Positions 2,166 to 29,469 are shown, numbered from the stretch's first letter. The stretch: DNA of 56,169 nt from Candidatus Kapaibacterium sp. (GCA_046590195.1 JBKJTP010000084.1:1-56169), one strand, 5' to 3'. The notes: a model not told the origin generated them from the letters alone. Translations and numbers: made by a program.

Positions 2166-3794
2166 ATGGATACCACAACCCCTAATTGCATCTCTTGCGG
2201 ACCTGAAGACGAAAATCCGCTCAACATCTCCAACTGCCCACCAGAAGTGACGGTTGAGACGCCCGAGACCGCCTGCGATTTCTGGGAACTGGTCAACAGT
2301 CCGGAAGCCTGCATCATTGGCGGGTTCATAGACGAATCGCTGACCATAGGTGGCGCTCCCCTGAATGTCTATAAGCTACTCGGTGTCCACGAACAGGATT
2401 TGTTACAGGACGTGTCCGGGCTTGGAGCGCCTATTTCGGGTGGCGACCACCCGAGCTTCCCGGCTAGCAACGCCTTCGATACCTACATTACGGAATGGCA
2501 CTCTCGTCAGACCGGTGTCGAGGTTACGACTTCGGCTTACATCGGCTACGACTTCGGTCCGATTAAGCTGAACAACGGTCGTCTTCGTTACGGAATCGAC
2601 ACCTTCATCAAGCATGACATCGCTGCCTTCCGTATCAAGCAGGGCTGCGAACCAGAAAATCGTGTCACCAAGGTTCGCGTGGAACGTTCCGCTGATGGTG
2701 TGAAGTGGTATGGTGTCACCATCCTAGACTTACAGGATTGTGATGGCCTCATCACTGTCTACTTCAACAAAAGTGTTCCGTCCCGCTACTGGCGTCTCCG
2801 TCCGACCGCATTCAATGGCGGCACGAATGACTTCTGGGCCGTACAGGCATTCCAGCTAATGGAATATGAAGCCACCAACATCAGTAACATTCAGGACAAG
2901 ATTTTCATGGAGAATCGCGACCGCGATTACAATGAATTTCCAATCCGGATGAAGTGTGCGTACACCCCACAGGATGTGGTCGCCAACCAGATGAAGTTCG
3001 GCTTCATGGGTGAGGAACAATACATTCTCGAAGTCTCCTTTGCACAGGCCGTTGCTAAGCTAGGACGCCCGTTTGTCATCGGTGACATTATACAGCTACC
3101 AAGCGAAACCCAGTACACACCGCTACTCAAGGCCAAGAACAAGTACCTTGAGGTCATGGACGTGGGTTGGAGTACGAACGGGTTCACCCCGACGTGGGTA
3201 CCGACCATGCAGCGTCTGATTGCTAAGCCGGCGTTTGCCTCGCAAGAAACACAGAAGGTCATGGGTAAGCTGACAGGTTCAGTGGACACCAGCGGCCTGT
3301 TTGATGTAGACGACGGAAACGCCGCTAAATATCAGGATTATTCGGACGTATCGCAGGCTATCAAGGCTGAGGCAAACACCAAGGTACCGCAAGACGGTGC
3401 CGACTACGCGAACATTCCCGTTCTTTCTGATGCGCTAATCAATTATGGCGCAGAAAGAAATCTAGACCTAACCAAACTGTCACGTCGTCGCCATCCACAT
3501 GGTGTTGACGCTATGCCACCAAACGGGTTACCCTTCACCGAGGGTGATGTTCTTCCGGATAGCCCAAAGGACCAAGCATACCATCGCCTCACCTACACAT
3601 CTGTTGGTAAGGGAATTCCAGCGCGTCTATATCGTTACTCTGCGGCCAAGCGACTGTGGATTTTCCTAGAGACCGACCAACGCTACCGTATGAAGAATAC
3701 GCGTTCGCAACTGGAAGAATTCAAGAATGGTAACCATACCGGTCGTGCGGTGCCGGCAGATAACGTTGACGACGAACTGGCGAAGGACGTATAA
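2166..3794 (+). CDS. neck protein, T4 gp14-like core with an N-terminal discoidin (F5/8 type C)-like domain
   Basis: WHSRQTG..AYIGYDFG...FRIKQG...KVRVERSADGVKWYGV...SRYWRLRP..WAVQAFQL fits a galactose-binding-like/discoidin pattern. Downstream, RPFVIGDIIQLPSE...YLEVMDVGW resembles the T4 gp14 block GDLIYFPMDNSLFEINWVE. Position follows the gp13-like gene. Confidence 0.45.
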   Translation: MDTTTPNCISCGPEDENPLNISNCPPEVTVETPETACDFWELVNSPEACIIGGFIDESLTIGGAPLNVYKLLGVHEQDLLQDVSGLGAPISGGDHPSFPASNAFDTYITEWHSRQTGVEVTTSAYIGYDFGPIKLNNGRLRYGIDTFIKHDIAAFRIKQGCEPENRVTKVRVERSADGVKWYGVTILDLQDCDGLITVYFNKSVPSRYWRLRPTAFNGGTNDFWAVQAFQLMEYEATNISNIQDKIFMENRDRDYNEFPIRMKCAYTPQDVVANQMKFGFMGEEQYILEVSFAQAVAKLGRPFVIGDIIQLPSETQYTPLLKAKNKYLEVMDVGWSTNGFTPTWVPTMQRLIAKPAFASQETQKVMGKLTGSVDTSGLFDVDDGNAAKYQDYSDVSQAIKAEANTKVPQDGADYANIPVLSDALINYGAERNLDLTKLSRRRHPHGVDAMPPNGLPFTEGDVLPDSPKDQAYHRLTYTSVGKGIPARLYRYSAAKRLWIFLETDQRYRMKNTRSQLEEFKNGNHTGRAVPADNVDDELAKDV

Positions 3795-3815
3795 TCTTCG
3801 CCACGCGGAGATTGT

Positions 3816-5477
3816 ATGAATTCAAACGAACAAAAACTCATCATTGATAATCTATTGTCATCGGCCGAGCTTTATGCCCGATGCGCCGGCATTGTCGAGG
3901 GTGAGTATTTCGATCCGGAATACCAGAATGTAATTAATTACATTAAGACGTATACCGACAAGTATGGCGCAACGCCAGACTTCGACCGCGTGAACGCCAA
4001 GTTCGATCTTGGCTTCAAGAAGCGCGCTGTAACTTTACCTGAAATCAAGGAAAACTGCGACTCGATAGAGCTATTCTGTCAGCAGCAGGCTCTATCTGCG
4101 GCTGTTCTAGCCGCTCTGGAAGACATCGAATCGGGCAACCTAGGGGCGATGAAGGCCCGTATCGACAAGGCATCCCTTATATCCCTTGAAAAGGATATGG
4201 GTGTCGAGATGTTCGAGAACCCGGAAGCCTATCTAATCAGTCTTCTAGAAAACGACATTTACTACTCCACCGGAATCAAGGGTCTCGACGACTATCTTGA
4301 CGGTGGTCTTGCTCGTAAGCAGCTTACACTTTTCTCCGCCAACTCCGGCGGTGGTAAGTCTGTAATGCTATCAAATCTCGGCGTCAACTACGCCCTGATT
4401 CATGGTATGAACGTGCTGTACATCTCGCTGGAACTTCCAGAGACGATGATTTACAAGCGCAATGCTTTCATTATGTCGGGCGTAAGCGCGAAGGAGTGGA
4501 AGGAAAAGCTCATCTCCATCGCGGCCAAGATCAACTCCATCAAGGCGGATGGTGCAGGCAGCTACCGAGTCAAGCGTCTACCGACCGGCTCTAACACCAA
4601 CGATATCCGTTCTTACCTGAAACAGTACGAACTGACGTATGGTTTCTGCCCCGATGTAATCATCGTCGATTACCTCGATGTTATGAGCCCGAACGAGGGC
4701 ACCAAGAATCTATCAGTATCCGAGCAGGACAAGCAAAAGGCTGAACAGCTTACACAGCTTCTGCATGACTACAATGCTATCGGCCTGTCCGCTTCACAGC
4801 AGAACCGCGAAGCCATAACAATGTCAGACCCTAATCAGGGCGTCATTGCCGGCGGTTTGACCAAGGTCAATGCAGTAGACAATTACGTCTCATTGTACAT
4901 GTCCCCAGAGCTTAGAGCCAAGGGTCAGTTTCTGATTTTCTTTCTCAAGACGCGATCATCAGATGGTGTAGGTAAGAAAACCATGCTCTCATTCGATAAC
5001 TCATGCCTGAGAATGGGTGACTTCGACGGGGGTGGCATGAGTTCTATTGCTGAATCCGCAAAGAAGCGAAAAAAGAAGGCAGACCTTGATAAGGCATTAG
5101 GTGTTTCCTTAACTGAACAAATTGAAGGATTACCCGGTGCCGAACCTGCTACTACACCCACACCAAGGCTGGACAAATTCGAGGAAAAGCTGGACAATAG
5201 CGTCACTGTAACTCGAACTGCAACAAAGCGAGATAATGTTGCGGACGTAGGTAAGCTACTCAAGGATTCCAAGAAGACGATCAAGCAGAAAACTGCTCTC
5301 GACCATATGGATGAAGAAGAGCAGATTACCAGCTACGGTAAGGGTACGATTCCACAACAGCAAGCAGTAACTAATCCGGAAACTGGAAAGGTACTTGACG
5401 ATGAGACGGTTGAGTTCATTGAAAAGAACGAACTGGATAAGGGCGCAGTAGAATTCATAATGAGTTTCATGGAGTAA
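3816..5477 (+). CDS. DnaB-family replicative DNA helicase (T4 gp41-like) with a ~150-aa charged C-terminal extension
   Basis: Walker A SANSGGGKSVML, Walker B VIIVDYLDVM, SASQQNREA motif. Confidence 0.85.
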   Translation: MNSNEQKLIIDNLLSSAELYARCAGIVEGEYFDPEYQNVINYIKTYTDKYGATPDFDRVNAKFDLGFKKRAVTLPEIKENCDSIELFCQQQALSAAVLAALEDIESGNLGAMKARIDKASLISLEKDMGVEMFENPEAYLISLLENDIYYSTGIKGLDDYLDGGLARKQLTLFSANSGGGKSVMLSNLGVNYALIHGMNVLYISLELPETMIYKRNAFIMSGVSAKEWKEKLISIAAKINSIKADGAGSYRVKRLPTGSNTNDIRSYLKQYELTYGFCPDVIIVDYLDVMSPNEGTKNLSVSEQDKQKAEQLTQLLHDYNAIGLSASQQNREAITMSDPNQGVIAGGLTKVNAVDNYVSLYMSPELRAKGQFLIFFLKTRSSDGVGKKTMLSFDNSCLRMGDFDGGGMSSIAESAKKRKKKADLDKALGVSLTEQIEGLPGAEPATTPTPRLDKFEEKLDNSVTVTRTATKRDNVADVGKLLKDSKKTIKQKTALDHMDEEEQITSYGKGTIPQQQAVTNPETGKVLDDETVEFIEKNELDKGAVEFIMSFME

Positions 5478-13463: not shown

Positions 13464-14546
13464 ATGTCTAAGAAGCCATCTCTGGCCGATATCCGCGCCA
13501 AGTACAAGCAGAAAATCGAAGGAAAGAAGAAAGATTTCGGTAACACCAACAACGATGTATATCCACACTGGAACATCGAAGAAAATGCAACTGCAACGGT
13601 TCGCATTCTACCGGACAAGAACGAAGACAATGAAGACAACTTCTTCATTGAGAAGCTAGAACACAAACTCTCCATCAATGGTAAGGATCGTAAGATTCCT
13701 TGCATCAAGATGTGGGGAGAGAAGTGCCCAATCTGCGAACTTAGCGCCAAGTACTACAAGGCCGACAAGGCTGCTGGCAACAAGGATTCCGTACAGGGTA
13801 AGTACTACTACTTCAAGCGCACCAGCCTGATGAAGGCTCTCATCACCAAAGACCCAATCTCTTACGAGGGCGGCGGTGAATCTGCTGTCGGTCAGGTCAA
13901 GACCCTACAGTTCACCTATCAGCTAATGAATCTCATCAATGCCGCGCTAGCGGAAGAAGATGAAGAGAAGGCGCTGACGGCACTGCCATGGGACTTGGAC
14001 GAGGGTTACAACTTCGTCATCAAGAAGACCAAGCAGGGCGAGTACGATAACTACTCCACCGGTTCGGGTTTCTCGAACAAGGTAACCGGCATTCCGGAGC
14101 AATACCGTGAAGCTGTCGAAGCGGGTATGGTTGACCTGTCCACGCTACTCCCGGCCAATCCCGGTCTGGAAGCGGTCCAGAAGCTACTCGAAGCTCACCT
14201 GAGCGGCGATGATGTCGAGGACGAGGAAGAGGATGACAAGCCGGTCAAGCGGAAGGTAGTGGAAACCGTAGAAGACGATGATGATGTACCTGTAAAGCGT
14301 CGTAAGCCAGTGGTCGAAGAAGAAGCCGAGGAAGAAGCCCCAGTCGCCAAGAAGCGCAAGCCTGTTGTCGAGGAAGAGGAAGAAGAAGCCCCGGTTGTCA
14401 AGAAAAAGAAGCCAGTGGTAGAGGAAGAAGAGGAAGAAGTAGCACCAGTTGTCAAGAAGAAGGTTACGCCAGCACCGGTAGCCGACGATGATGAGGATGA
14501 GGATGCTGCTCTGATTGCCAAGATTCGCGCTCGAAAGAACGCCTAA
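13464..14546 (+). CDS. ssDNA-binding protein, T4 gp32-like, with an expanded Lys/Glu repeat tail
   Basis: Blocks matching remembered gp32: VRILPDKNED (T4 IRFLPSKNDE), Zn site CPICE (T4 CPVCQ), FKRTS, ITKDP, LPWDLDEGYNFVIKK (T4 CPWEGANFVLKVK), NYS.S.F. Acidic C-terminus. Confidence 0.85.
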   Translation: MSKKPSLADIRAKYKQKIEGKKKDFGNTNNDVYPHWNIEENATATVRILPDKNEDNEDNFFIEKLEHKLSINGKDRKIPCIKMWGEKCPICELSAKYYKADKAAGNKDSVQGKYYYFKRTSLMKALITKDPISYEGGGESAVGQVKTLQFTYQLMNLINAALAEEDEEKALTALPWDLDEGYNFVIKKTKQGEYDNYSTGSGFSNKVTGIPEQYREAVEAGMVDLSTLLPANPGLEAVQKLLEAHLSGDDVEDEEEDDKPVKRKVVETVEDDDDVPVKRRKPVVEEEAEEEAPVAKKRKPVVEEEEEEAPVVKKKKPVVEEEEEEVAPVVKKKVTPAPVADDDEDEDAALIAKIRARKNA

Positions 14547-23237: not shown

Positions 23238-24527
23238 ATGGCTAACTGCGCTGAAAATGTATATGTAATCAAATACACCGATATCGCCAAGGGTACGATT
23301 ACGATCACCAAGTCTTCCTTGGTTACGAATCTGATCGACATCGCGCTGGTCGGTAAGTCGCGTCTTGATTACGGCGAACTATTCGACGAGAACCTACTCC
23401 ATCTTCTAGAGAACTTTGCTTGCCCGGAAGACTCCGGTACGCCGGGTACTCCTGATCTGTCCGAAGCCTATGGCACCCTTCTAAGCAATCCTATTCAGGG
23501 TCAGAAGTGGTACAACTCAACCAATGGTTATCTGTATATCTTCAGCAACGATGAGTGGATTTGTCAGGGGCGTCAAGGCGACGTTGCTGGTAACTCCGGC
23601 GTCATTGCCCATGGCGCGTATCTTCCGCAGCCTGTTAACTCCCTCGGTTACGTGTTCCCGTATGCAGAGTGTAGCTTCGTTGTAAGTCCTCATTCCTATT
23701 TGGCTACTGATATTACCGGCCTCCCGGCTGATATAGAAGTTGATTTCATGACGTGTAATGTCGATGCAAATGGGCTAGTAACAATGCAGTTCCGTTATCG
23801 CGGTGAGTCTTCTCTACGAGACGGTTACGTCAATTATCAGATTATTGGTATCCGTGGTGAAACCAACGGTGCGGTCATGGTGGTAACACCATACCCTGTC
23901 CCATCTCCGACTCCGGGTGTGAGCCCGACAATTACACCAACGATGACGCCTACGAAGACGGTCACACCGACCCCAACGAAGACCCCGACACCGACCCCGA
24001 ACTTGTCTGTCTCGGTAACACCGACGAAGACGGTAACCCCAACACCGACGATTACTGTCACCCGTACAGTAACTCCAACACCGACACCGACGAAGACGGT
24101 AACCCCAACTCCATCGCCGTCTACTGCGGCAGCACTGGACCTGAGTCGTTTCTCCGGGCTTATTGGTACCACCAGTCTCCACAATCCGGCAGCAGTGGTT
24201 GTCACATTCGATGTTGATGGTACATGGGCTATTGATAGAATTCCGGGTACGGATGAGACCGGAACTTTCCTTGCTTCCGGTGATACATCAGAATATGAGT
24301 TTGAATTCTCCTATACTGGTGATGACGACCCATCCGGTGGCGCTTATGTCCCAAGTACATGGTATCCTGTAGCAGACGGTATTTACTTGTCTATTTCTGA
24401 TGCTGTTGTTGGCTCAGGTTTTAATTCCTCATTGTGTGTGTTGACCATGCGTAAGATTAGTAATAATGCCATTTCCGAGACCGCATCATTCACAATGCGT
24501 GCAGACGGTAATACATACGACGGATAA
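23238..24527 (+). CDS. fibre-like structural protein, paralogue A (conserved N-domain, PT linker, unique C-domain)
   Basis: Its N-terminal ~215 aa are shared with the ORFs at 24583 and 27054 (blocks listed in the findings). Followed by an 80-aa Pro/Thr linker. Confidence 0.7.
   Translation: MANCAENVYVIKYTDIAKGTITITKSSLVTNLIDIALVGKSRLDYGELFDENLLHLLENFACPEDSGTPGTPDLSEAYGTLLSNPIQGQKWYNSTNGYLYIFSNDEWICQGRQGDVAGNSGVIAHGAYLPQPVNSLGYVFPYAECSFVVSPHSYLATDITGLPADIEVDFMTCNVDANGLVTMQFRYRGESSLRDGYVNYQIIGIRGETNGAVMVVTPYPVPSPTPGVSPTITPTMTPTKTVTPTPTKTPTPTPNLSVSVTPTKTVTPTPTITVTRTVTPTPTPTKTVTPTPSPSTAAALDLSRFSGLIGTTSLHNPAAVVVTFDVDGTWAIDRIPGTDETGTFLASGDTSEYEFEFSYTGDDDPSGGAYVPSTWYPVADGIYLSISDAVVGSGFNSSLCVLTMRKISNNAISETASFTMRADGNTYDG
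23886..24125 (+). repeat. Pro/Thr-rich linker-coding low-complexity repeat (paralogue A)
   Basis: TPYPVPSPTPGVSPTITPTMTPTKTVTPTPTKTPTPTP...TVTPTPSPS. Reiterated ACN-CCN codons create spurious antisense ORFs. Confidence 0.85.
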
Positions 24528-24582: not shown

Positions 24583-26883
24583 ATGTCGGATTACAACGTA
24601 AAGTTTACAGACACCAACAAAACTCCCATTCTCGTCGAACAGGATGCTCAGAAGTCAACCGAAACGGACCTCGTTCTGTTCGGTCGAAGCTTCTTGGAGT
24701 ATGGTGAACAACTGAATGAGAATCTGGTAAAGATACTAGAGAACTTTGCATGTTCCGAAATGGCAGCACCACCGGAAGCTGGCGATTGGCCCGACACCGA
24801 TCTTACCGTCAATGAGACACTTACCGAGCCACTCGAAGGTCAGTTGTGGTATAACACCACGAAGCAGGCCCTGTACAATTACAACGGTACCATGTGGATT
24901 CCGCTGGTGACGGGTTCGGACTATGCTGCCAATTGGGGACAAGTCACAGACGGTACACTATTACCGCGTCCGGTTGCACAAAATGGATATGTTTTCCCTT
25001 ACTCGGAGTGTATCTGGATAGTCTCTCCGGCCGGACATGGCGGTCGATTCGATTATATGGCTTGCACTACAGACGAAGACGCGCAGGTACTGATGCGTTA
25101 TCGTTTACTCGGTGACGACACGCTGACTAGCGGTACCGCAAATTATCTCATTATTGGTATTCGTGGTAACACTAACAACGGTACCATCGTTGTGGACCCG
25201 CCGATTTATGTCGAGCCGAGCCCAACACCGGGTGCATCCCCGACACCGGCACCGTCAAGTACGCGTCCGCCGACTCCAACTCCAACGAACACACGCACTG
25301 CAACGCCGACGATTTCGTTGACGCGTACACCGGTACCGTCCGCCTCACGTACTCCACCACCAACACCATCACCACGTCCGGCTCTCGCCATGAACATCGT
25401 TGACAGTGCCCGTGGTGGTGACTACGTGGACTCCATCAGCCTATGCAACATGGGTGACTACATCTCGACCTTGGACGTTGGTAATCAGGGTTGCACGGTA
25501 ACTATCGGTAACTGCACCTCCGGTGCATGCGCTCCGGAACCGGGTGATTTCTCCACGGGTGACGTAGCAATCGGTGCGGCTATGGGTATCACTGTAACCG
25601 GTGGCACTGCACCGTACACCGTCAGATTCAAGACCTTCACCGCTACGAGCGGCGCGGCAGCATTTGCAGCTAGTGGCGACTGTCTGTTCATCGGCGGTAG
25701 TTCTGGTTTCAGCACACTACCAAGCGGAACAGTCTATTCTTTCATCATCCCGACCGATGGTGGTAGTCAGGATGGCATCACAATCAACGCTTCATGCGGT
25801 GACGATGTTTACACGCTGACTGGTAACTTCACAGTTGAGGTAACGGATTCCGTTGGTACCATCATATCGGAAACATTCCCTTACACCGTAGAACGTAAGA
25901 ACGAAGCAGCTTGCTATGACATCACCGATTTCCGCTCCGGATTTATGCTATCTGATAGTAATGGTGGGTCTTCAAGTTGTGATGGTAGCGCCATGGCGTC
26001 CTCCGGTACACCTACTAACTGGCTAGCGAAGACGGCCAGCGTAAACTACACATCGTTCAATTCGAACGTCGGAGCGCCAAGCAAGGTAATCATGTCCGGT
26101 ATTCCGAAGTGGTGGCCGCGTCCGGCGGCGCGTGTGACATTAACCATTACACACCCACTAGCCGGCTCTGCTCCGGTAACAGTAACGGCGTTCCGTGATA
26201 CTGGTAGAGCTAGCGCGGCTAATGGTGTATCGACCGGAACCGGTTCAGTTACTATTGGCGCGCATACCTATACCGTGACACTGTCGATAACAGTAGGATA
26301 CACCGGTAAGGACCAAATTGATGGTGTGTGTAATGATATTTACTACTACAATATCAGTCCGTCCTTCACAATTTCTCCGGCTATTACTTCTTGTTCAGCA
26401 CTGACACCGCCGGGTGGCGCACTCTATGACGGTGGTGGTGGTGGTGGTTGTGTTACGACCGAATCCATGATTTACGGTAGTGGCCTAGCTTCCGGCGTCA
26501 TGGTCGGTGCGACCATGACGGTCATCGACCCATCCAGTCTAGAGTTGGGTACGGGTATTGTTTCTCTGGCCGACATCAAGCTACAGCCTTGCGTGCGAAT
26601 CACTTCCGAGTCAGGCGTTGTGCTGGAATGCTCGACAACCGCTCCAATCGCTAACAGCGACGGTGTGCAGGTTCTAGCTCCTGACCTGTTGGGTGTCGAA
26701 GTGCTTGTCTACGACAATGGTGTGGTGCGTTCTGAGAAGGTTGTGAGTGTTGAAGACATCGGTGACAAGGAAGTCGTCCACATCACGGTAGAGAACAACT
26801 ACTTCTTGGCCGGTGCCGAAGACGGTCGTTACTTCTTCCACCATAATATCAAAAACTTCATTGGCGGGTTACAGCCTTACTAA
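24583..26883 (+). CDS. fibre-like structural protein, paralogue B, with a C-terminal Hint (intein-like) domain
   Basis: Shared N-domain, PT linker (25195-25380), a ~350-aa G/S/T-rich region, a Gly6 run, then the Hint domain. Confidence 0.75.
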   Translation: MSDYNVKFTDTNKTPILVEQDAQKSTETDLVLFGRSFLEYGEQLNENLVKILENFACSEMAAPPEAGDWPDTDLTVNETLTEPLEGQLWYNTTKQALYNYNGTMWIPLVTGSDYAANWGQVTDGTLLPRPVAQNGYVFPYSECIWIVSPAGHGGRFDYMACTTDEDAQVLMRYRLLGDDTLTSGTANYLIIGIRGNTNNGTIVVDPPIYVEPSPTPGASPTPAPSSTRPPTPTPTNTRTATPTISLTRTPVPSASRTPPPTPSPRPALAMNIVDSARGGDYVDSISLCNMGDYISTLDVGNQGCTVTIGNCTSGACAPEPGDFSTGDVAIGAAMGITVTGGTAPYTVRFKTFTATSGAAAFAASGDCLFIGGSSGFSTLPSGTVYSFIIPTDGGSQDGITINASCGDDVYTLTGNFTVEVTDSVGTIISETFPYTVERKNEAACYDITDFRSGFMLSDSNGGSSSCDGSAMASSGTPTNWLAKTASVNYTSFNSNVGAPSKVIMSGIPKWWPRPAARVTLTITHPLAGSAPVTVTAFRDTGRASAANGVSTGTGSVTIGAHTYTVTLSITVGYTGKDQIDGVCNDIYYYNISPSFTISPAITSCSALTPPGGALYDGGGGGGCVTTESMIYGSGLASGVMVGATMTVIDPSSLELGTGIVSLADIKLQPCVRITSESGVVLECSTTAPIANSDGVQVLAPDLLGVEVLVYDNGVVRSEKVVSVEDIGDKEVVHITVENNYFLAGAEDGRYFFHHNIKNFIGGLQPY
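25195..25380 (+). repeat. Pro/Thr/Ser-rich linker-coding repeat (paralogue B)
   Basis: DPPIYVEPSPTPGASPTPAPSSTRPPTPTPTNTRTATPTISLTRTPVPSASRTPPPTPSPRP. Confidence 0.85.
26449..26847 (+). other. Hint / bacterial-intein-like autoprocessing domain at the fibre C-terminus
   Basis: Begins with Cys after GGGGGG (CVTTESMIYG, block A-like). Block F-like VVHITVENNYFLAG. Ends FFHHN (block G His-Asn). The +1 residue is Ile, followed by only 11 aa (IKNFIGGLQPY). Confidence 0.6.
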
Positions 26884-27053
26884 TGTATATCATCGTCCGA
26901 CACAAAGATAATGTAATCGTAGGCAACGCTCTTCGTCCGGTTGACGAAGTTCAGTTGTCCAAAAATGGCTATAAGGTATTCGAGATAGATGACTCCGAGT
27001 TCTCTATCTCAATGCTGGGCTCCAAACTGGACGGGTTTCAAGAGGTTAAGTAA
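26883..27053 (+). CDS. small hypothetical ORF (56 aa), below the ORF-track cutoff, between fibre paralogues B and C
   Basis: ATG overlaps the upstream stop (TAATG) and its own stop abuts the next start (TAAATG). Translation: MYIIVRHKDNVIVGNALRPVDEVQLSKNGYKVFEIDDSEFSISMLGSKLDGFQEVK. Confidence 0.4.
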   Translation: MYIIVRHKDNVIVGNALRPVDEVQLSKNGYKVFEIDDSEFSISMLGSKLDGFQEVK

Positions 27054-28259
27054 ATGACAGTCTACAAGGTAAAGTACACCCTAGCGGACAAGACTCCAAT
27101 TTCCATTCCGGAATCGGAAGTCGATAGCTCGACGGCCGTAAAGTTATTCGGTCGTAAGAAGCTCGCTTACGGTAAGGACTTGAACGAGAACCTACTACGC
27201 CTTCTGGAATCATTCTCCTGCCCGGAACTCGCTGCTACGCTTCCGGTCACCCCGGACGCGGACTCGCTGGCAGACGCTACCGTATTTGCAAACCCGGTCG
27301 AGGGTCAGTTGTGGTTTAATTCAACTAGAGAAACCCTCTATGTCTGGGACGCGACAGAGTGGATTGAGCATAAGAAATTTGGTGACATTGCCGCGAATTG
27401 GGGTATAATTGCATCTGGCGGTCAGATTCCACTACCCGTCTCGTCCAACGGTACAACTTACACATACGCAGAGTGTTCATGGATTGTTAGCCCGTGGGGT
27501 TATCCAAACGCTATAGATTTCATGCGGTGTTTTACTGATGACGACGCCAACGTGACGATGGAGTATTCTCTGGAAGCCTCCGGTAGTAACGTCGCAGGCT
27601 TCGCAAATTACATCATCATCGGCATTCCGGGTAACGTCAATCTTGGTGTTACACTGCCACCTGTTTCCATGACACCGACACCGACAGTCACGCCGACAAT
27701 TTCCATAACGCCGACCATGACACCGACACCAACGCCGACAACTTCGGTAACGCCAACGTTACCAACGTCACCAACCCCAACCCCGACAATTACGGTCACG
27801 CCGACAATTACGGTCACGCCGACACCGACAATTTCCATAACGCCTACACTTTCCCTGACACCAACGCCGACAGTTTCCAGCGGCGCGTTGATTTCAATGC
27901 CAGCGGAAGGTACGGAAATCTCGTCGTTGGAATCCGCAGCAGCACCGGCCACGGCGGACTTTGCACTTCAGTCGGATGGTGATTATGCTTACTTCGAATT
28001 TGCCACACTTCCACCACGGTGGTTGGTCAGTGGTACTCCGAGTGACTACGAATGTCGTGTTATTCAAACGAGCGGCTCGTTCGACGCCGGTTCTGCTACG
28101 AATACATGGCTAAACCTCGGAACGACTCGTTCGTGGCATAATACCTCCACACTACCACAGACCATAAACTTCACGCTTGAAATCCGTAATGCTGGTACGC
28201 TGGTTAGCTTTGGTGTAGTTAACATGGTAATGTACACTGAAGGTAACATTGGCGCATAA
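27054..28259 (+). CDS. fibre-like structural protein, paralogue C
   Basis: Shared N-domain, PT linker (27654-27875), unique ~125-aa C-domain. Confidence 0.7.
   Translation: MTVYKVKYTLADKTPISIPESEVDSSTAVKLFGRKKLAYGKDLNENLLRLLESFSCPELAATLPVTPDADSLADATVFANPVEGQLWFNSTRETLYVWDATEWIEHKKFGDIAANWGIIASGGQIPLPVSSNGTTYTYAECSWIVSPWGYPNAIDFMRCFTDDDANVTMEYSLEASGSNVAGFANYIIIGIPGNVNLGVTLPPVSMTPTPTVTPTISITPTMTPTPTPTTSVTPTLPTSPTPTPTITVTPTITVTPTPTISITPTLSLTPTPTVSSGALISMPAEGTEISSLESAAAPATADFALQSDGDYAYFEFATLPPRWLVSGTPSDYECRVIQTSGSFDAGSATNTWLNLGTTRSWHNTSTLPQTINFTLEIRNAGTLVSFGVVNMVMYTEGNIGA
27654..27875 (+). repeat. Pro/Thr-rich linker-coding repeat (paralogue C)
   Basis: LPPVSMTPTPTVTPTISITPTMTPTPTPTTSVTPTLPTSPTPTPTITVTPTITVTPTPTISITPTLSLTPTPT. 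Confidence 0.85.
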
Positions 28260-28267
28260 CCATAACC

Positions 28268-28921
28268 ATGCCCCTTAAAATAAAGAACATAACAACTTCG
28301 AAGACCGTAGAGCAGGGAAGATTGGAGTGGGCGGAAACCCTCTCCCATCGTAATAAACTGCTCACCTCTTCGGATTGGACCCAGCTTCCGGACTCCGGTC
28401 TTACGTCTGAGTGTGTTGAGAACTGGCGTATCTGGCGAGGCATCGTCCGGCAGCTTCGCAAGGACAATCATCCTGACCGTAATCTTGTTACGGAGCAAAT
28501 CAATCGTCTTACTCGTGCCAAGCCCGTCAACCGATGGGCCGACGAGCCTGAGATTGCGTTGCCTCTTCTCGATAACTCATTCGCTAGCCATCAAAAGCGC
28601 GTCATGGATTACATGGACGTGATGTTCAACGATGCCGCCACTGTCAAGTCATTCCTCGAACATCCTCTCCTGATAGATGCCGGCCTCCGGAAGGCAGAAA
28701 AGGAGCTTGGTATATTGGGTAAAATTGGAATCCTATCCAGAAAAATATGGTCCGATAAACTATTCGAATTGAATCACCGAAGGAATGTTAGTGTAGCCCG
28801 TATTTTCAAGCTACAGAGCAAGTACTTGGAGTTTTCCGAGCTTGTCAAGAACGCCACGGCTACTGTAGAATTGCAGACACTACAGGTAGAAATAAAGCAA
28901 TGGATATCGACATTGACTTAA
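28268..28921 (+). CDS. possible tail-fibre assembly/chaperone-like protein
   Basis: The N-terminal RNKLLTSSDWTQLPDSGLTSECVENWRIWRGIVRQLR matches the remembered tail-fibre-assembly signature (LL..SDW..lpD......W..YRq.LR). Lies directly after the fibre paralogues. Confidence 0.35.
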   Translation: MPLKIKNITTSKTVEQGRLEWAETLSHRNKLLTSSDWTQLPDSGLTSECVENWRIWRGIVRQLRKDNHPDRNLVTEQINRLTRAKPVNRWADEPEIALPLLDNSFASHQKRVMDYMDVMFNDAATVKSFLEHPLLIDAGLRKAEKELGILGKIGILSRKIWSDKLFELNHRRNVSVARIFKLQSKYLEFSELVKNATATVELQTLQVEIKQWISTLT

Positions 28922-29469
28922 GGTCGGACTTCAAGGTGGAGCGGGTGTTCAAGCATGTAACGCCCGCTTCTATGGTAGAGAAGGATGAACTTAAGCGACA
29001 TAACGTTGGCGCGTACTTCCAGAAGATTCCGCGTGACCCCATCTCCAATCTCGCCGCAATCCCCTATGGGGAGGCGGAGGAATTGGGCTATCTGAAAATA
29101 GACTTCCTTTCACTAAATTTACTGTCCAGTTTCGAGACTAAGGCCGAAGTTTTACACTTCGCCCGCAAGGAACCAAACTGGAAGAGATTGAACGATGAAC
29201 AGTTCGTAGAGAAGCTATTCCACATTTCCAAACACTATGACATGGTTCAAAAGGTCAACCCACGTTCCGTACTGGAACTGGCTGACATTCTGGCTCTGAT
29301 TCGACCGGGTAAAACCATTCTTCTGGATAAATACCTGAAGAACAAGAAACTGACGAGGAAGGAACTGTACACCAAGCGGCAGGTATCGGACCTACGAAAG
29401 TCCCATGCCATAGCTTATGCAGTCAACATCGTCATTAATATGAATCTGGTTGAGGCCGGAATACTATGA
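28900..29469 (+). CDS. DnaE (Pol III alpha)-like fragment 2: catalytic palm aspartates plus an abbreviated fingers region
   Basis: MDIDIDL (DnaE PDFDVDF), RHNVGAYF (HAGGVVI), GYLKIDFLSLNLLS (GLVKFDFLGLRTLT, third catalytic Asp), LADILALIRPGK (MIALVALFRPGP), LRKSHAIAYAV (FNKSHSAAYAL). The thumb is almost entirely missing. Confidence 0.7.
   Translation: MDIDIDLRSDFKVERVFKHVTPASMVEKDELKRHNVGAYFQKIPRDPISNLAAIPYGEAEELGYLKIDFLSLNLLSSFETKAEVLHFARKEPNWKRLNDEQFVEKLFHISKHYDMVQKVNPRSVLELADILALIRPGKTILLDKYLKNKKLTRKELYTKRQVSDLRKSHAIAYAVNIVINMNLVEAGIL

Follow-up and report, generated by a model that had tools for sequence, protein, structure and literature searches.

Introduction

Hint domains are known in inteins, Hedgehog proteins, bacterial intein-like (BIL) domains and polymorphic toxins, and Ser-Lys chaperone domains are a known means of phage tail fibre maturation. 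In Hedgehog, the Hog part combines a Hint module with a sterol-recognition region of about 60 aa on its C-terminal side, and to our knowledge C-terminal cleavage by Asn cyclisation has not been reported there. Type-A BIL domains, found in proteins such as Neisseria MafB and in C. thermocellum (PDB 2LWY), were reportedly described by Amitai in 2003 and by Dassa in 2004, and the Pfam family PT-HINT (PF07591) presumably covers the MafB/FhaB-type BILs. Type-A BILs carry Cys1 and His-Asn, have no +1 nucleophile, and mainly cleave (PMC4031507); the proteins that carry BILs are secreted or exposed at the surface and not conserved, and the BILs lie in their variable regions (PMC7765530). Pretoxin HINT domains are predicted to release by autoproteolysis what follows them (PMC3482391). 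In the BUBL BIL2 domain a histidine, H69, has been suggested as the key catalytic residue (PMC8616854). The C-terminal chaperones of tailspikes and fibres of the Peptidase S74 type are self-removing (PMC7824862).

The gene described here, paralogue B, encodes a putative fibre of a jumbo phage. Its C-terminus is probably a Hint autoprocessing domain of a type-A-BIL-like subfamily, which removes itself from the distal end of the fibre.

Organization of the gene and its surroundings

Paralogue B is an ORF of 766 aa at 24583..26883 of the window, the whole 56,169-nucleotide stretch of DNA that was analysed; its stop codon is at 26881-26883, and all features given below lie, as the gene does, on the plus strand. 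The N-terminal domain (aa 1 to about 205; 24583..25197) is common to three paralogues, and matches PHROG 15511 (E 2e-103), which carries no functional assignment. It is presumed to be the virion anchor. Its AlphaFold model has a pLDDT of 81.5, and comparison with PDB structures gave nothing significant, the best match being the tail fibre gp53 of AP22 (E 0.023). A Pro/Thr-rich linker read from the translation (aa about 206-268; 25198..25386), similar in kind to linkers in paralogues A and C, precedes a variable distal region (aa 269-604; 25387..26394), which ends ...SPAITSC604 and is matched by no PHROG. The flexible linker SALTPPGGALYDGGGGGG (aa 605-622; 26395..26448) includes a Gly6 run (G617-G622; 26431-26448 by translation), and provides in G622 the -1 residue of the Hint domain. 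The latter spans 133 aa from C623 to N755 (26449..26847), as indicated by predicted structure, hhalign and dN/dS.

C623 (26449..26451) is Cys1, the predicted nucleophile of an N-S acyl shift at the G622-C623 bond. The block B equivalent, C683-S684-T-T-A687-P688 (26629..26646), has Ser at the Thr position and Ala at the His position, and the block-F-like VVHITVENNYFLAG (aa 731-744; 26773..26814) has H733 at the position of the block-F Asp of inteins. Block G is H753-H754-N755 (26839..26847); N755 (26845-26847), the end of RYFFHHN, is the Asn predicted to cyclise in C-terminal cleavage. A tail of 11 residues, IKNFIGGLQPY (26848..26880), with Ile at +1 and Lys757 at +2, closes the protein, and the part from C623 to Y766 measures 144 aa. 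The initial annotation of this DNA had listed the Gly6 run, C623, STTAP (S684-P688; 26632-26646), VVHITVENNYFLAG, RYFFHHN, and an Ile followed by 10 residues, and translation finds every one of them in place. It had also stated that both a +1 nucleophile and an extein are absent. [quoted passage not shown] A six-frame scan of the whole window identified one copy of the Hint domain. By megablast, the gene had no match in phage genomes, and a promoter/terminator scan around it gave nothing exceeding the shuffled background.

Paralogue B is regarded as a putative fibre. According to the paper on XacN1, that genome has no tail-fibre homologues, and the six homologues of paralogue B are annotated as hypothetical; the paper and its supplement contain no virion evidence for these homologues, and do not report them as structural proteins. 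A tail-fibre assembly chaperone-like protein of 217 aa is encoded at 28268..28921, as judged from PHROG matches (phrog_4697 'tail assembly chaperone', E 1.2e-5; phrog_4912 'tail fiber assembly', E 1.5e-4), and its L011 counterpart matches Pfam Phage_tail_APC. A conserved 56-aa ORF (26883..27053) runs from the stop of paralogue B, with which it overlaps in TAATG, up to the start of paralogue C. It has no Pfam match, and homologues are located directly 3' of the Hint-bearing gene in L011 and XacN1 (ORF230). A role as general Hint-specific partner is not supported, the ORF following the Hint gene only in three related jumbo-phage loci, and being absent beside the homologues in LucasX, RTH11 and PhiXhv-12.

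Fold of the C-terminal domain

The AlphaFold model of the Hint domain, built on an alignment of 8 sequences, is all-beta (pLDDT 85.6, pTM 0.81); pLDDT falls below 50 where the model starts, in residues of the linker, and in the 11-residue tail. A Foldseek search of PDB structures with this predicted model yielded 56 matches (E<=0.001), and the best 50 of them are all inteins, BILs or Hedgehog, with probability 1.00 and TM 0.6-0.77. TM values are 0.73/0.77 for the Ssp and Npu DnaB mini-inteins, 0.71/0.76 for the C. thermocellum BIL, which ranks 22 and is not nearer than inteins, and 0.69/0.72 for Hedgehog. Tetrahymena BUBL BIL2 ranks 4 (TM 0.69). In a viral structure library uncharacterised members of the family are on top, followed by terminase and RNR inteins.

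Profile comparisons lead in the same direction. A profile of 162 family sequences aligns end-to-end with the gp41-1 intein (hhalign 91.5%, E 1.1e-7), C1 falling on C1, S684 on the block-B Ser, A687 on the block-B His and HN on HN; VVHITVENNYFLAG is aligned with LIDIEVSGNHLFYAN of gp41-1, and block B with THDHP and SEEH of inteins. A profile of 7 sequences gave four weak matches in the PDB, all to inteins and in register. Single-sequence and 119-sequence full-length profiles returned nothing significant among PDB sequences; a YlbL PDZ-like match, the best of the 119-sequence profile, was discarded as spurious. Comparisons by hhalign with Npu DnaE and with the Hint domain of L011 paralogue A were not significant or out of register, probably because of single-sequence templates and of the internal pseudo-symmetry of the fold. 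The proposal that the layout is that of a Hint or BIL-like domain rather than of a splicing intein agrees with both the PDB matches and the gp41-1 alignment.

The Hint profile search that had been suggested along with this proposal had the opposite outcome, no match being found in Pfam or NCBIfam. Neither the protein nor the domain is matched at E<=1 by Pfam Hint, Hint_2, PT-HINT, Intein_splicing, Hom_end_hint and Vint, or by the NCBIfam intein N- and C-terminal models, and no PHROG with assigned function matches the domain. Since both the structure and the profile-profile comparisons point to a Hint fold, this is not taken as a refutation, and the missing match is a sign of subfamily divergence, not of an absent fold. 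As modelled, the domain is at the fold level a member of the Hint superfamily.

Paralogues, orthologues and selection

The syntenic orthologue of paralogue B in L011 is P0017, 755 aa long. The two Hint domains are 80% identical, and their dN/dS of 0.155 denotes purifying selection. Conservation of the tail stops at Lys +2, the L011 orthologue reading VKQGP. Paralogues A (429 aa; 23238..24527) and C (401 aa; 27054..28259) are both without Hint domain. Paralogue A ends ...ADGNTYDG, and at the same point its L011 orthologue continues, from ...ADGG to CFAVG..., into a Hint_2-like domain of ~150 aa, whose match to Hint_2 (E 1.6e-5) does not reach the gathering score. The XacN1 paralogues ORF235 and ORF232 terminate at a Cys aligned, at low identity, with C604. 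By the N-terminal domain, six paralogues each were counted in XacN1, Xoo-sp13, CM1 and RAS14. Judged on sequence, the Hint domain is a dispensable, appended module, as the paralogues without it end at or just before the attachment point.

A family of Hint domains on phage tail proteins

An exhaustive profile search assigned to the family 1,278 protein clusters, 1,032 of which at E<=1e-10, and the representatives come from clusters less than 50% identical to each other. Recurrence in so many clusters indicates that the C623...HHN layout is not due to chance. Conservation was measured on 162 aligned domain copies, from the window protein and the 150 top-ranking representatives; denominators for Cys1, His and Asn are the copies having a residue at that position. 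Cys1 (150/150), the penultimate His (H754, 157/157) and the terminal Asn (N755, 153/153) are invariant. In block B, C683 is found in 156, S684 in 155 and P688 in 155 of the 162 copies, and position 687 is filled by Ala (131) or Thr (31), never by His (0/162). The loss of the block-B His that had been noticed in this protein is thus real, and extends to the whole family. In block F, F741 (158/160), A743 (153/160) and G744 (154/160) are well kept, and H733 occurs in 98/162, so that His stands at the Asp position in the majority of the family. The domain measures 132-144 residues from Cys1 to Asn, and is marked by a C-V start and by the motifs L-x-C-S-x-T-A-P, F-x-A-G and [HS]-H-N-x-K. Pfam at 1e-3 recognised the Hint domain in 0/151 relatives.

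The absence of block-B His and block-F Asp, and the silence of standard Hint/intein profiles, could denote an inactive Hint fold, retained as a permanent structural or receptor-binding tip of the fibre, and the domain is indeed the most distal part of the protein, the usual place of binding domains. We deem this unlikely. Invariant Cys1 (150/150), His (157/157) and Asn (153/153) placed exactly at the two junctions are hard to explain structurally, and one would hardly expect a binding domain to hang on a flexible poly-Gly tether. A binding tip should moreover be variable, whereas few parts of the protein are as well conserved as this domain (80% identity to the orthologue); finally, paralogues and orthologues exist without it.

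The junctions have recurrent features. The -1 residue is Gly in 74/138 relatives, and 100/138 have at least 3 Gly within the 10 residues preceding Cys1. The +1 residue is L/M/V/I in 105/145 and S/T/C in 5/145, and Lys is at +2 in 105/145. Cys1, terminal His-Asn, mini-intein size, and a sequence likeness which is closest to the phage-type gp41-1 might suggest a genuine or decaying mobile intein, located by chance near the end of the gene. Such an origin is hardly credible: a +1 nucleophile occurs in just 5/145, both a conserved C-extein and an endonuclease are lacking, the host proteins are variable and non-conserved rather than essential enzymes, the same terminal architecture recurs in over 1,000 diverged clusters, and the domain is under purifying selection.

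After Asn, 66/135 relatives have a tail of 0-11 residues, and about half one of 12-300 aa. Nameable partner domains of the relatives are mostly those of phage tail proteins, namely tail fibre, T7 fibre N-terminus, central fibre J, tape measure and baseplate proteins, and the family domain occurs on many unrelated proteins. One RHS-repeat protein and one protein with a Peptidase_M91 effector domain are also included. These two relatives and the long tails would fit a domain which, as pretoxin HINT domains, works in cargo release only, by cutting off whatever follows Asn755, the short tail of paralogue B being vestigial; in polymorphic toxins HINT domains directly precede toxin domains (PMC3482391). 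This is very unlikely to be the case. The tail is 0-11 aa long here and in 66/135 relatives, and is not conserved; Cys1 is invariant, though Asn cyclisation alone needs no Cys1; and no Pfam toxin/effector domain was found in 9/10 of the long-tailed proteins.

Tandem Hint-Hint pilin-like proteins also occur among the relatives. Cultured phages with a member of the family include XacN1 (ORF231), LucasX (gp306), RTH11 (WJJ55140) and DLP_6, whose record opens with the ORF in question. A pattern-based locus search found only 3 viral loci, and the degenerate pattern G-x-Y-I-L-H-H-N-x-K 31 loci, of which 3 are real (Stenotrophomonas, Duganella, Undibacterium). In the literature searched, no description seems to exist of a large Hint subfamily located distally on phage tail proteins. 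The initial annotation knew of no characterised phage fibre matured by a Hint domain, and in the same literature no paper deals with a fibre-borne one.

A plausible route of self-removal

Self-cleavage at the Gly-Cys bond, or transfer to another nucleophile, is predicted from the invariant catalytic residues and by analogy. According to the preferred reading, in which the domain removes itself, the domain would fold at the end of the fibre behind the flexible Gly-rich linker, as both sequence and model indicate. Cys623 would then attack the G622-C623 bond, and the resulting N-S acyl shift give a Gly thioester, since Cys1 is invariant and this is the chemistry of Hint domains. Asn755, aided by His754, would cyclise and cut away the 11-residue tail, a step suggested by the invariance of His-Asn. 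Hydrolysis may eventually dispose of the thioester, or else the alpha-amine freed on the tail may attack it, as happens in type-A BILs; the fibre would be left with ...GGGGGG or ...GGGGGG-IKNFIGGLQPY as its end, and the Hint domain, ~14 kDa in size, would be set free. The biological role would be a single-turnover maturation of the receptor-distal tip.

Fold, sequence, family, selection, the state of appended module, tail context and BIL chemistry were counted in favour of self-removal. [quoted passage not shown] Block-B His and block-F Asp are missing, so that some other mechanism would have to make up for them in N-terminal activation. A passage of PMC8616854, which cites Friedel 2019, mentions that a few inteins compensate for missing helper residues.

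The G622-C623 thioester may alternatively be captured by a specific nucleophile, in place of simple cleavage. Candidate acceptors are Lys +2 (branched isopeptide splicing), a Lys of a virion protein (cross-linking), and an amine or hydroxyl of the host envelope (covalent adsorption). Among relatives with nameable partners, homologues of tail fibre, central fibre J and tape measure proteins carry the domain at their C-terminus, and in such proteins this end forms the distal tip of the tail, which contacts the host. The Gly-rich end preceding Cys resembles the Gly-Gly end of ubiquitin, and Lys +2, kept in 105/145, is otherwise unexplained. Precedents are BUBL BIL2, a structural match of the domain, which makes a Lys isopeptide bond by splicing and without ATP (PMC8616854), and Hedgehog, in which the N-terminal domain is transferred to cholesterol (PMC7765530). 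Conjugation is nonetheless rather improbable, because the acceptor is purely a candidate, tails and upstream domains vary greatly, and outside the cell an exposed thioester would be lost to hydrolysis; in addition, the invariant Asn suggests a BIL-like cleavage of the tail, and cleavage products dominate in BILs (PMC4031507). In the stricter form of a single-use ligase, whose poly-Gly thioester is captured by an amine of Lys +2, of a virion protein or of the host envelope, the idea is slightly more doubtful still.

If active, the domain would represent a new maturation route for receptor-binding proteins, and show how a Hint domain works without the block-B histidine. Compact natural modules (about 134 aa) yielding a poly-Gly C-terminus or a Gly thioester would also be of use in protein engineering. 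The description of the family lets annotators recognise Hint-bearing tail proteins. Were the thioester transferred and not hydrolysed, adsorption or assembly of phages would involve covalent attachment of a new kind; were the domain a ligase, the fibre tip would be isopeptide-linked or covalently anchored to the host, and ATP-free, ubiquitin-like conjugation would take place in phage tails, and possibly in pilus tips.

Comparison with known systems

Type-A BILs share with the domain of paralogue B a Hint fold of about 135-140 aa, Cys1, a C-terminal His-Asn and the absence of a +1 nucleophile, as well as a location in variable parts of non-conserved surface or secreted proteins, which is here the variable C-terminus of just one paralogue out of three; by analogy, the expected chemistry would be N- and C-terminal cleavage, with occasional ligation. 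In contrast to type-A BILs, PF07591 is not matched at E<=1, PT-HINT being used here as a proxy for type-A motifs, block-B His is replaced by Ala/Thr within a distinct set of motifs, the domain is usually at the extreme C-terminus with few residues after it, and the hosts are mostly phage tail proteins. Type-B BIL or Hint_2 domains are set apart, as PF13403 is not matched and a canonical His-Asn closes the domain.

The best structural and sequence matches are phage-type mini-inteins (gp41-1, DnaB, DnaE). Cys1, block-B Ser/Thr and terminal His-Asn align, and ICSEEH of gp41-1 is mirrored by LECSTTAP. Unlike mini-inteins, however, the domain has no C-extein, no +1 nucleophile and no block-B His, and is not inserted in a conserved enzyme; class-1 splicing cannot occur. 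The T-x-x-H signature of block B of the Hint superfamily is replaced by S684-T-T-A687, in which Ser for Thr is a conservative change.

Pretoxin HINT domains (PF07591) resemble the domain in ending a filamentous extracellular protein, and some relatives are long-tailed or RHS proteins; they differ in that almost nothing follows the domain here, and no HMM match is found. BUBL BIL2 and Hedgehog have the same fold (TM 0.69-0.72) and an upstream domain ending in Gly, and capture of their thioester by Lys or cholesterol is the precedent for conjugation. Yet neither a ubiquitin-like domain nor a sterol-recognition region is present here, and block-B His is absent, whereas BUBL BIL2 has H69. Differently from Hedgehog Hog, the tail is 11 aa long and disordered, Asn is invariant, and Pfam Hint PF01079 is not matched. 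The likeness to Peptidase S74 chaperones would be a functional analogy only, that of a self-removing C-terminal domain on phage fibres: S74 domains are trimeric and helical and use a Ser-Lys dyad, whereas the domain of paralogue B has no S74 match in Pfam, and has a Hint fold.

A predicted Hint fold at the end of paralogue B

Paralogue B (24583-26883, + strand, 766 aa) ends in a domain (C623-Y766) which the initial annotation had described as Hint-type and autoprocessing, and the translation bears out each feature assigned to it. The upstream side reads SPAITSC604-SALTPPGGALYD-GGGGGG(617-622)-C623-VTTESMIYG, the middle LEC683-S684-TTA687-P688 and VVH733ITVENNYFLAG, and the protein finishes with RYFFH753-H754-N755-IKNFIGGLQPY. 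The domain is single-copy, since a six-frame scan of the window detected no second one. [quoted passage not shown] A genuine intein is a lesser alternative.

Pfam and NCBIfam profiles gave no match at E<=1 with either the whole protein or the last 150 aa, and a PHROG scan found no family covering the domain. Despite the failure of curated profiles, three independent lines, from sequence and modelling, identify a Hint fold and concur with the Hint/BIL-type (bacterial intein-like) layout first proposed. A 7-sequence profile matched PDB sequences just four times, weakly, but all matches are inteins and in register, the family S-x-x-A-P overlying the intein T-x-x-H-P. The AlphaFold2 model is all-beta (pLDDT 85.6, pTM 0.81), and Foldseek found 56 PDB matches to it at E<=0.001. 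Hint structures make up all of the best 50, among which the Ssp and Npu DnaB mini-inteins (TM 0.73/0.77), Tetrahymena BUBL BIL2 (TM 0.69), a C. thermocellum BIL (TM 0.71/0.76) and Hedgehog (TM 0.69/0.72). Lastly, the gp41-1 intein aligns globally with the 162-sequence family profile (hhalign 91.5%, E 1.1e-7). The two Cys1 residues pair, as do the two His-Asn ends, and S684 and A687 lie opposite the block-B Ser and His, respectively. The gp41-1 sequence used is consistent with the portion shown in the PDB-profile alignment.

Size and conservation of the family

A word-indexed search retrieved only a few relatives; an exhaustive profile search retrieved 1,278 clusters at E<=0.001, of which 1,032 also pass E<=1e-10 and 169 pass E<=1e-30. 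No Pfam Hint or intein family matches any of 151 relatives at 1e-3. Conservation was counted in the best 150 of the 1,278 cluster representatives plus the window protein, which yield 162 aligned domain copies, ten proteins carrying tandem Hint pairs. Cys1 (150/150), the penultimate His (157/157) and the terminal Asn (153/153) are invariant, Val2 is found in 150/151 copies, and Thr/Ser675, Gly678, Leu681, Cys683, Ser684, Pro688, Gly727, Phe741, Ala743 and Gly744 each exceed 95%. Cys1 and Asn delimit 132-144 residues (median 134). The -1 residue is Gly in 74/138 copies and small in the remainder, and at least three Gly occur within the 10 residues preceding Cys1 in 100/138. Position +1 is L/M/V/I in 105/145 copies and S/T/C in 5/145. 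The tail after Asn spans 0-11 aa in 66 of 135 copies, 12-60 aa in 43, and is longer in 26. The absence of the block-B His, already noted in the window protein, extends to the family, position 687 being Ala (131/162) or Thr (31/162) and never His; H733, at the block-F Asp position, is found in 98/162 copies.

A second Cys right before the block-B Ser (156/162; C683, 26629-26631) and Lys+2 (105/145; K757, 26851-26853) are strongly kept as well. Standard Hint chemistry does not account for either; they may act as a redox switch or make up for the missing block-B His.

Genes and phages hosting the domain

The window is jumbo-phage DNA, and Xanthomonas phages Xoo-sp13 and XacN1 are distant relatives of that phage (clamp loader 50% identical). 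The adjacent paralogues A (23238-24527), B and C have in common an N-terminal domain of 200 aa and a linker rich in Pro and Thr, and their distal parts diverge; six paralogues of this kind occur in XacN1 and its relatives. A gene resembling tail-fibre assembly chaperones (28268-28921) lies 3' of them, an arrangement typical of a fibre or receptor-binding protein set. Fibre identity stays an inference, because the N-terminal domain is not functionally annotated, a structure search with its model gave no significant match (best, AP22 tail fibre, E 0.023), and the XacN1 homologues are annotated as hypothetical in the XacN1 paper, which reports no visible fibres.

A conserved 56-aa ORF (MYIIVRHKDNVIVGN..., 26883-27053, + strand) overlaps with its ATG the paralogue B stop (TAATG), and its stop abuts the paralogue C ATG. 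It has no Pfam match; homologues lie directly 3' of the Hint-bearing gene in the related contig L011 (7043-7213) and XacN1 (ORF230). A 189-aa ORF (28900-29469, + strand; PHROG 11778 'DNA polymerase', E 7e-61), which is conserved in L011 as well as XacN1, overlaps the 3' end of the chaperone-like gene and looks like a stand-alone polymerase fragment.

Upstream parts of the relatives, where nameable by Pfam or PHROG, belong mostly to phage tail proteins: tape measure, central tail fibre J, T7 tail-fibre N-terminus, several tail-fibre PHROGs, baseplate tube cap and collagen-like minor tail protein. [quoted passage not shown] In cultured phages, namely Xanthomonas phages LucasX and RTH11 (poly-Gly-Cys...THN plus 6-8 aa), PhiXhv-12, Stenotrophomonas DLP_6 and XacN1 (ORF231), the domain sits at the gene end, within the tail module. 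ORF231 (13602-14459 of the XacN1 locus), encoded directly after paralogue ORF232, is a separate 285-aa protein consisting of an Ig-like part, GGGGGG and Cys...YTHN-VADQKM; modules have therefore been shuffled between genes of related phages.

Bacterial surface proteins are a minority of hosts: five proteins have pilin-like N-termini (N_methyl/PilS), some of them if not all being tandem Hint-Hint proteins, and one is an RHS protein. P0008, P0009, P0011, P0012, P0016, P0018 and P0019 carry back-to-back Hint domains (...HHN-KK-x-G-x-C...), and the second copy ends the protein with HHD or HHS, lacking Asn. N_methyl, a type IV pilin-like N-terminus, is found on P0008 and four further long relatives, and may mean that pilus-like filaments carry a related system.

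P0021, P0038, P0039, P0081, P0117 and the product of 746-2323 in L005, a relative's locus, have His-His-Asn followed by a common tail of ~240 aa (..K-M-x-P/E-G-T-G-[VM]-D-L-x-G-M-M..) that Pfam does not recognise. The L005 gene lies immediately 5' of genes whose small, mostly hydrophobic products look by eye like a lysis cassette. In the SU10-like phage contig L008, the P0004 gene (4506-5471) is open upstream through three in-frame TAG codons, in a protein-like stretch including ...GGGAG-Cys1, and terminase and portal genes are likewise fragmented; in this phage TAG probably encodes an amino acid.

Selection, gain and loss

Comparison with related phages provides evidence that the domain is functional, yet apparently dispensable in the mature protein. 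L011 is syntenic with the window, and its paralogue B has the same Hint domain (80% identity, dN/dS 0.155). The tails after His-His-Asn, IKNFIGGLQPY and VKQGP, are wholly different except for Lys+2. In L011 paralogue A (3028-4770) ends in another, more canonical Hint domain of ~150 aa (CFAVG..., TTREH, ...SHN-ISG), with T-x-x-H and a Pfam Hint_2 match at E 1.6e-5, below the gathering score. Window paralogue A terminates exactly at that attachment point (...ADGNTYDG versus L011 ...ADGG before the Cys). XacN1 ORF232 and ORF235 stop at a Cys aligned with C604, 18 residues ahead of the Hint Cys; since identity is low, this is suggestive evidence only. Hint domains from two lineages have therefore come and gone at the very end of these proteins, behind a flexible linker. 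Erwinia and Yersinia jumbo phages have relatives of the L011 paralogue A domain, under the label 'virion structural protein'.

A plausible mechanism

The analysis shows a Hint fold, by prediction, with invariant residues at both junctions and no nucleophile at +1, set between a flexible linker and a disordered tail and kept under purifying selection. By established Hint chemistry (PMC4031507, PMC7765530), Cys623 would form a thioester at G622-C623, and Asn755, assisted by His754, would cyclise and cut off the tail. Next, hydrolysis of the G622 thioester, or attack on it by the freed amine as happens in type-A BILs, would leave a poly-Gly fibre terminus and a discarded domain of ~14 kDa. A structural Hint domain devoid of activity, or one serving solely to release cargo, are lesser alternatives. 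Capture of the thioester by Lys, as in BUBL BIL2 (PMC8616854), or by another nucleophile, as in Hedgehog, is by analogy conceivable, and rated lower than self-removal. The main weakness of self-removal is the absent block-B His. Compensation for its loss is documented for a few inteins, according to a reference cited in PMC8616854, and conserved H733, C683 or Lys+2 are candidate compensators here.

Comparison with known Hint families

The literature searched holds nothing relevant on Hint or intein-like domains linked to tail fibres or tape measure proteins, which agrees with the initial annotation, aware of no characterised phage fibre matured by a Hint domain; a comparative review of jumbo phages mentions, for fibres, S74 domains alone (PMC7824862). 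The family is large, was missed by the curated profile libraries tried, and is experimentally accessible. By analogy, the paralogue B domain would work like a type-A BIL; by sequence it falls outside every curated Hint family and lacks the Hint-defining T-x-x-H. In contrast to curated families, its own is marked by a distinct motif set, a terminal position and phage-tail hosts.
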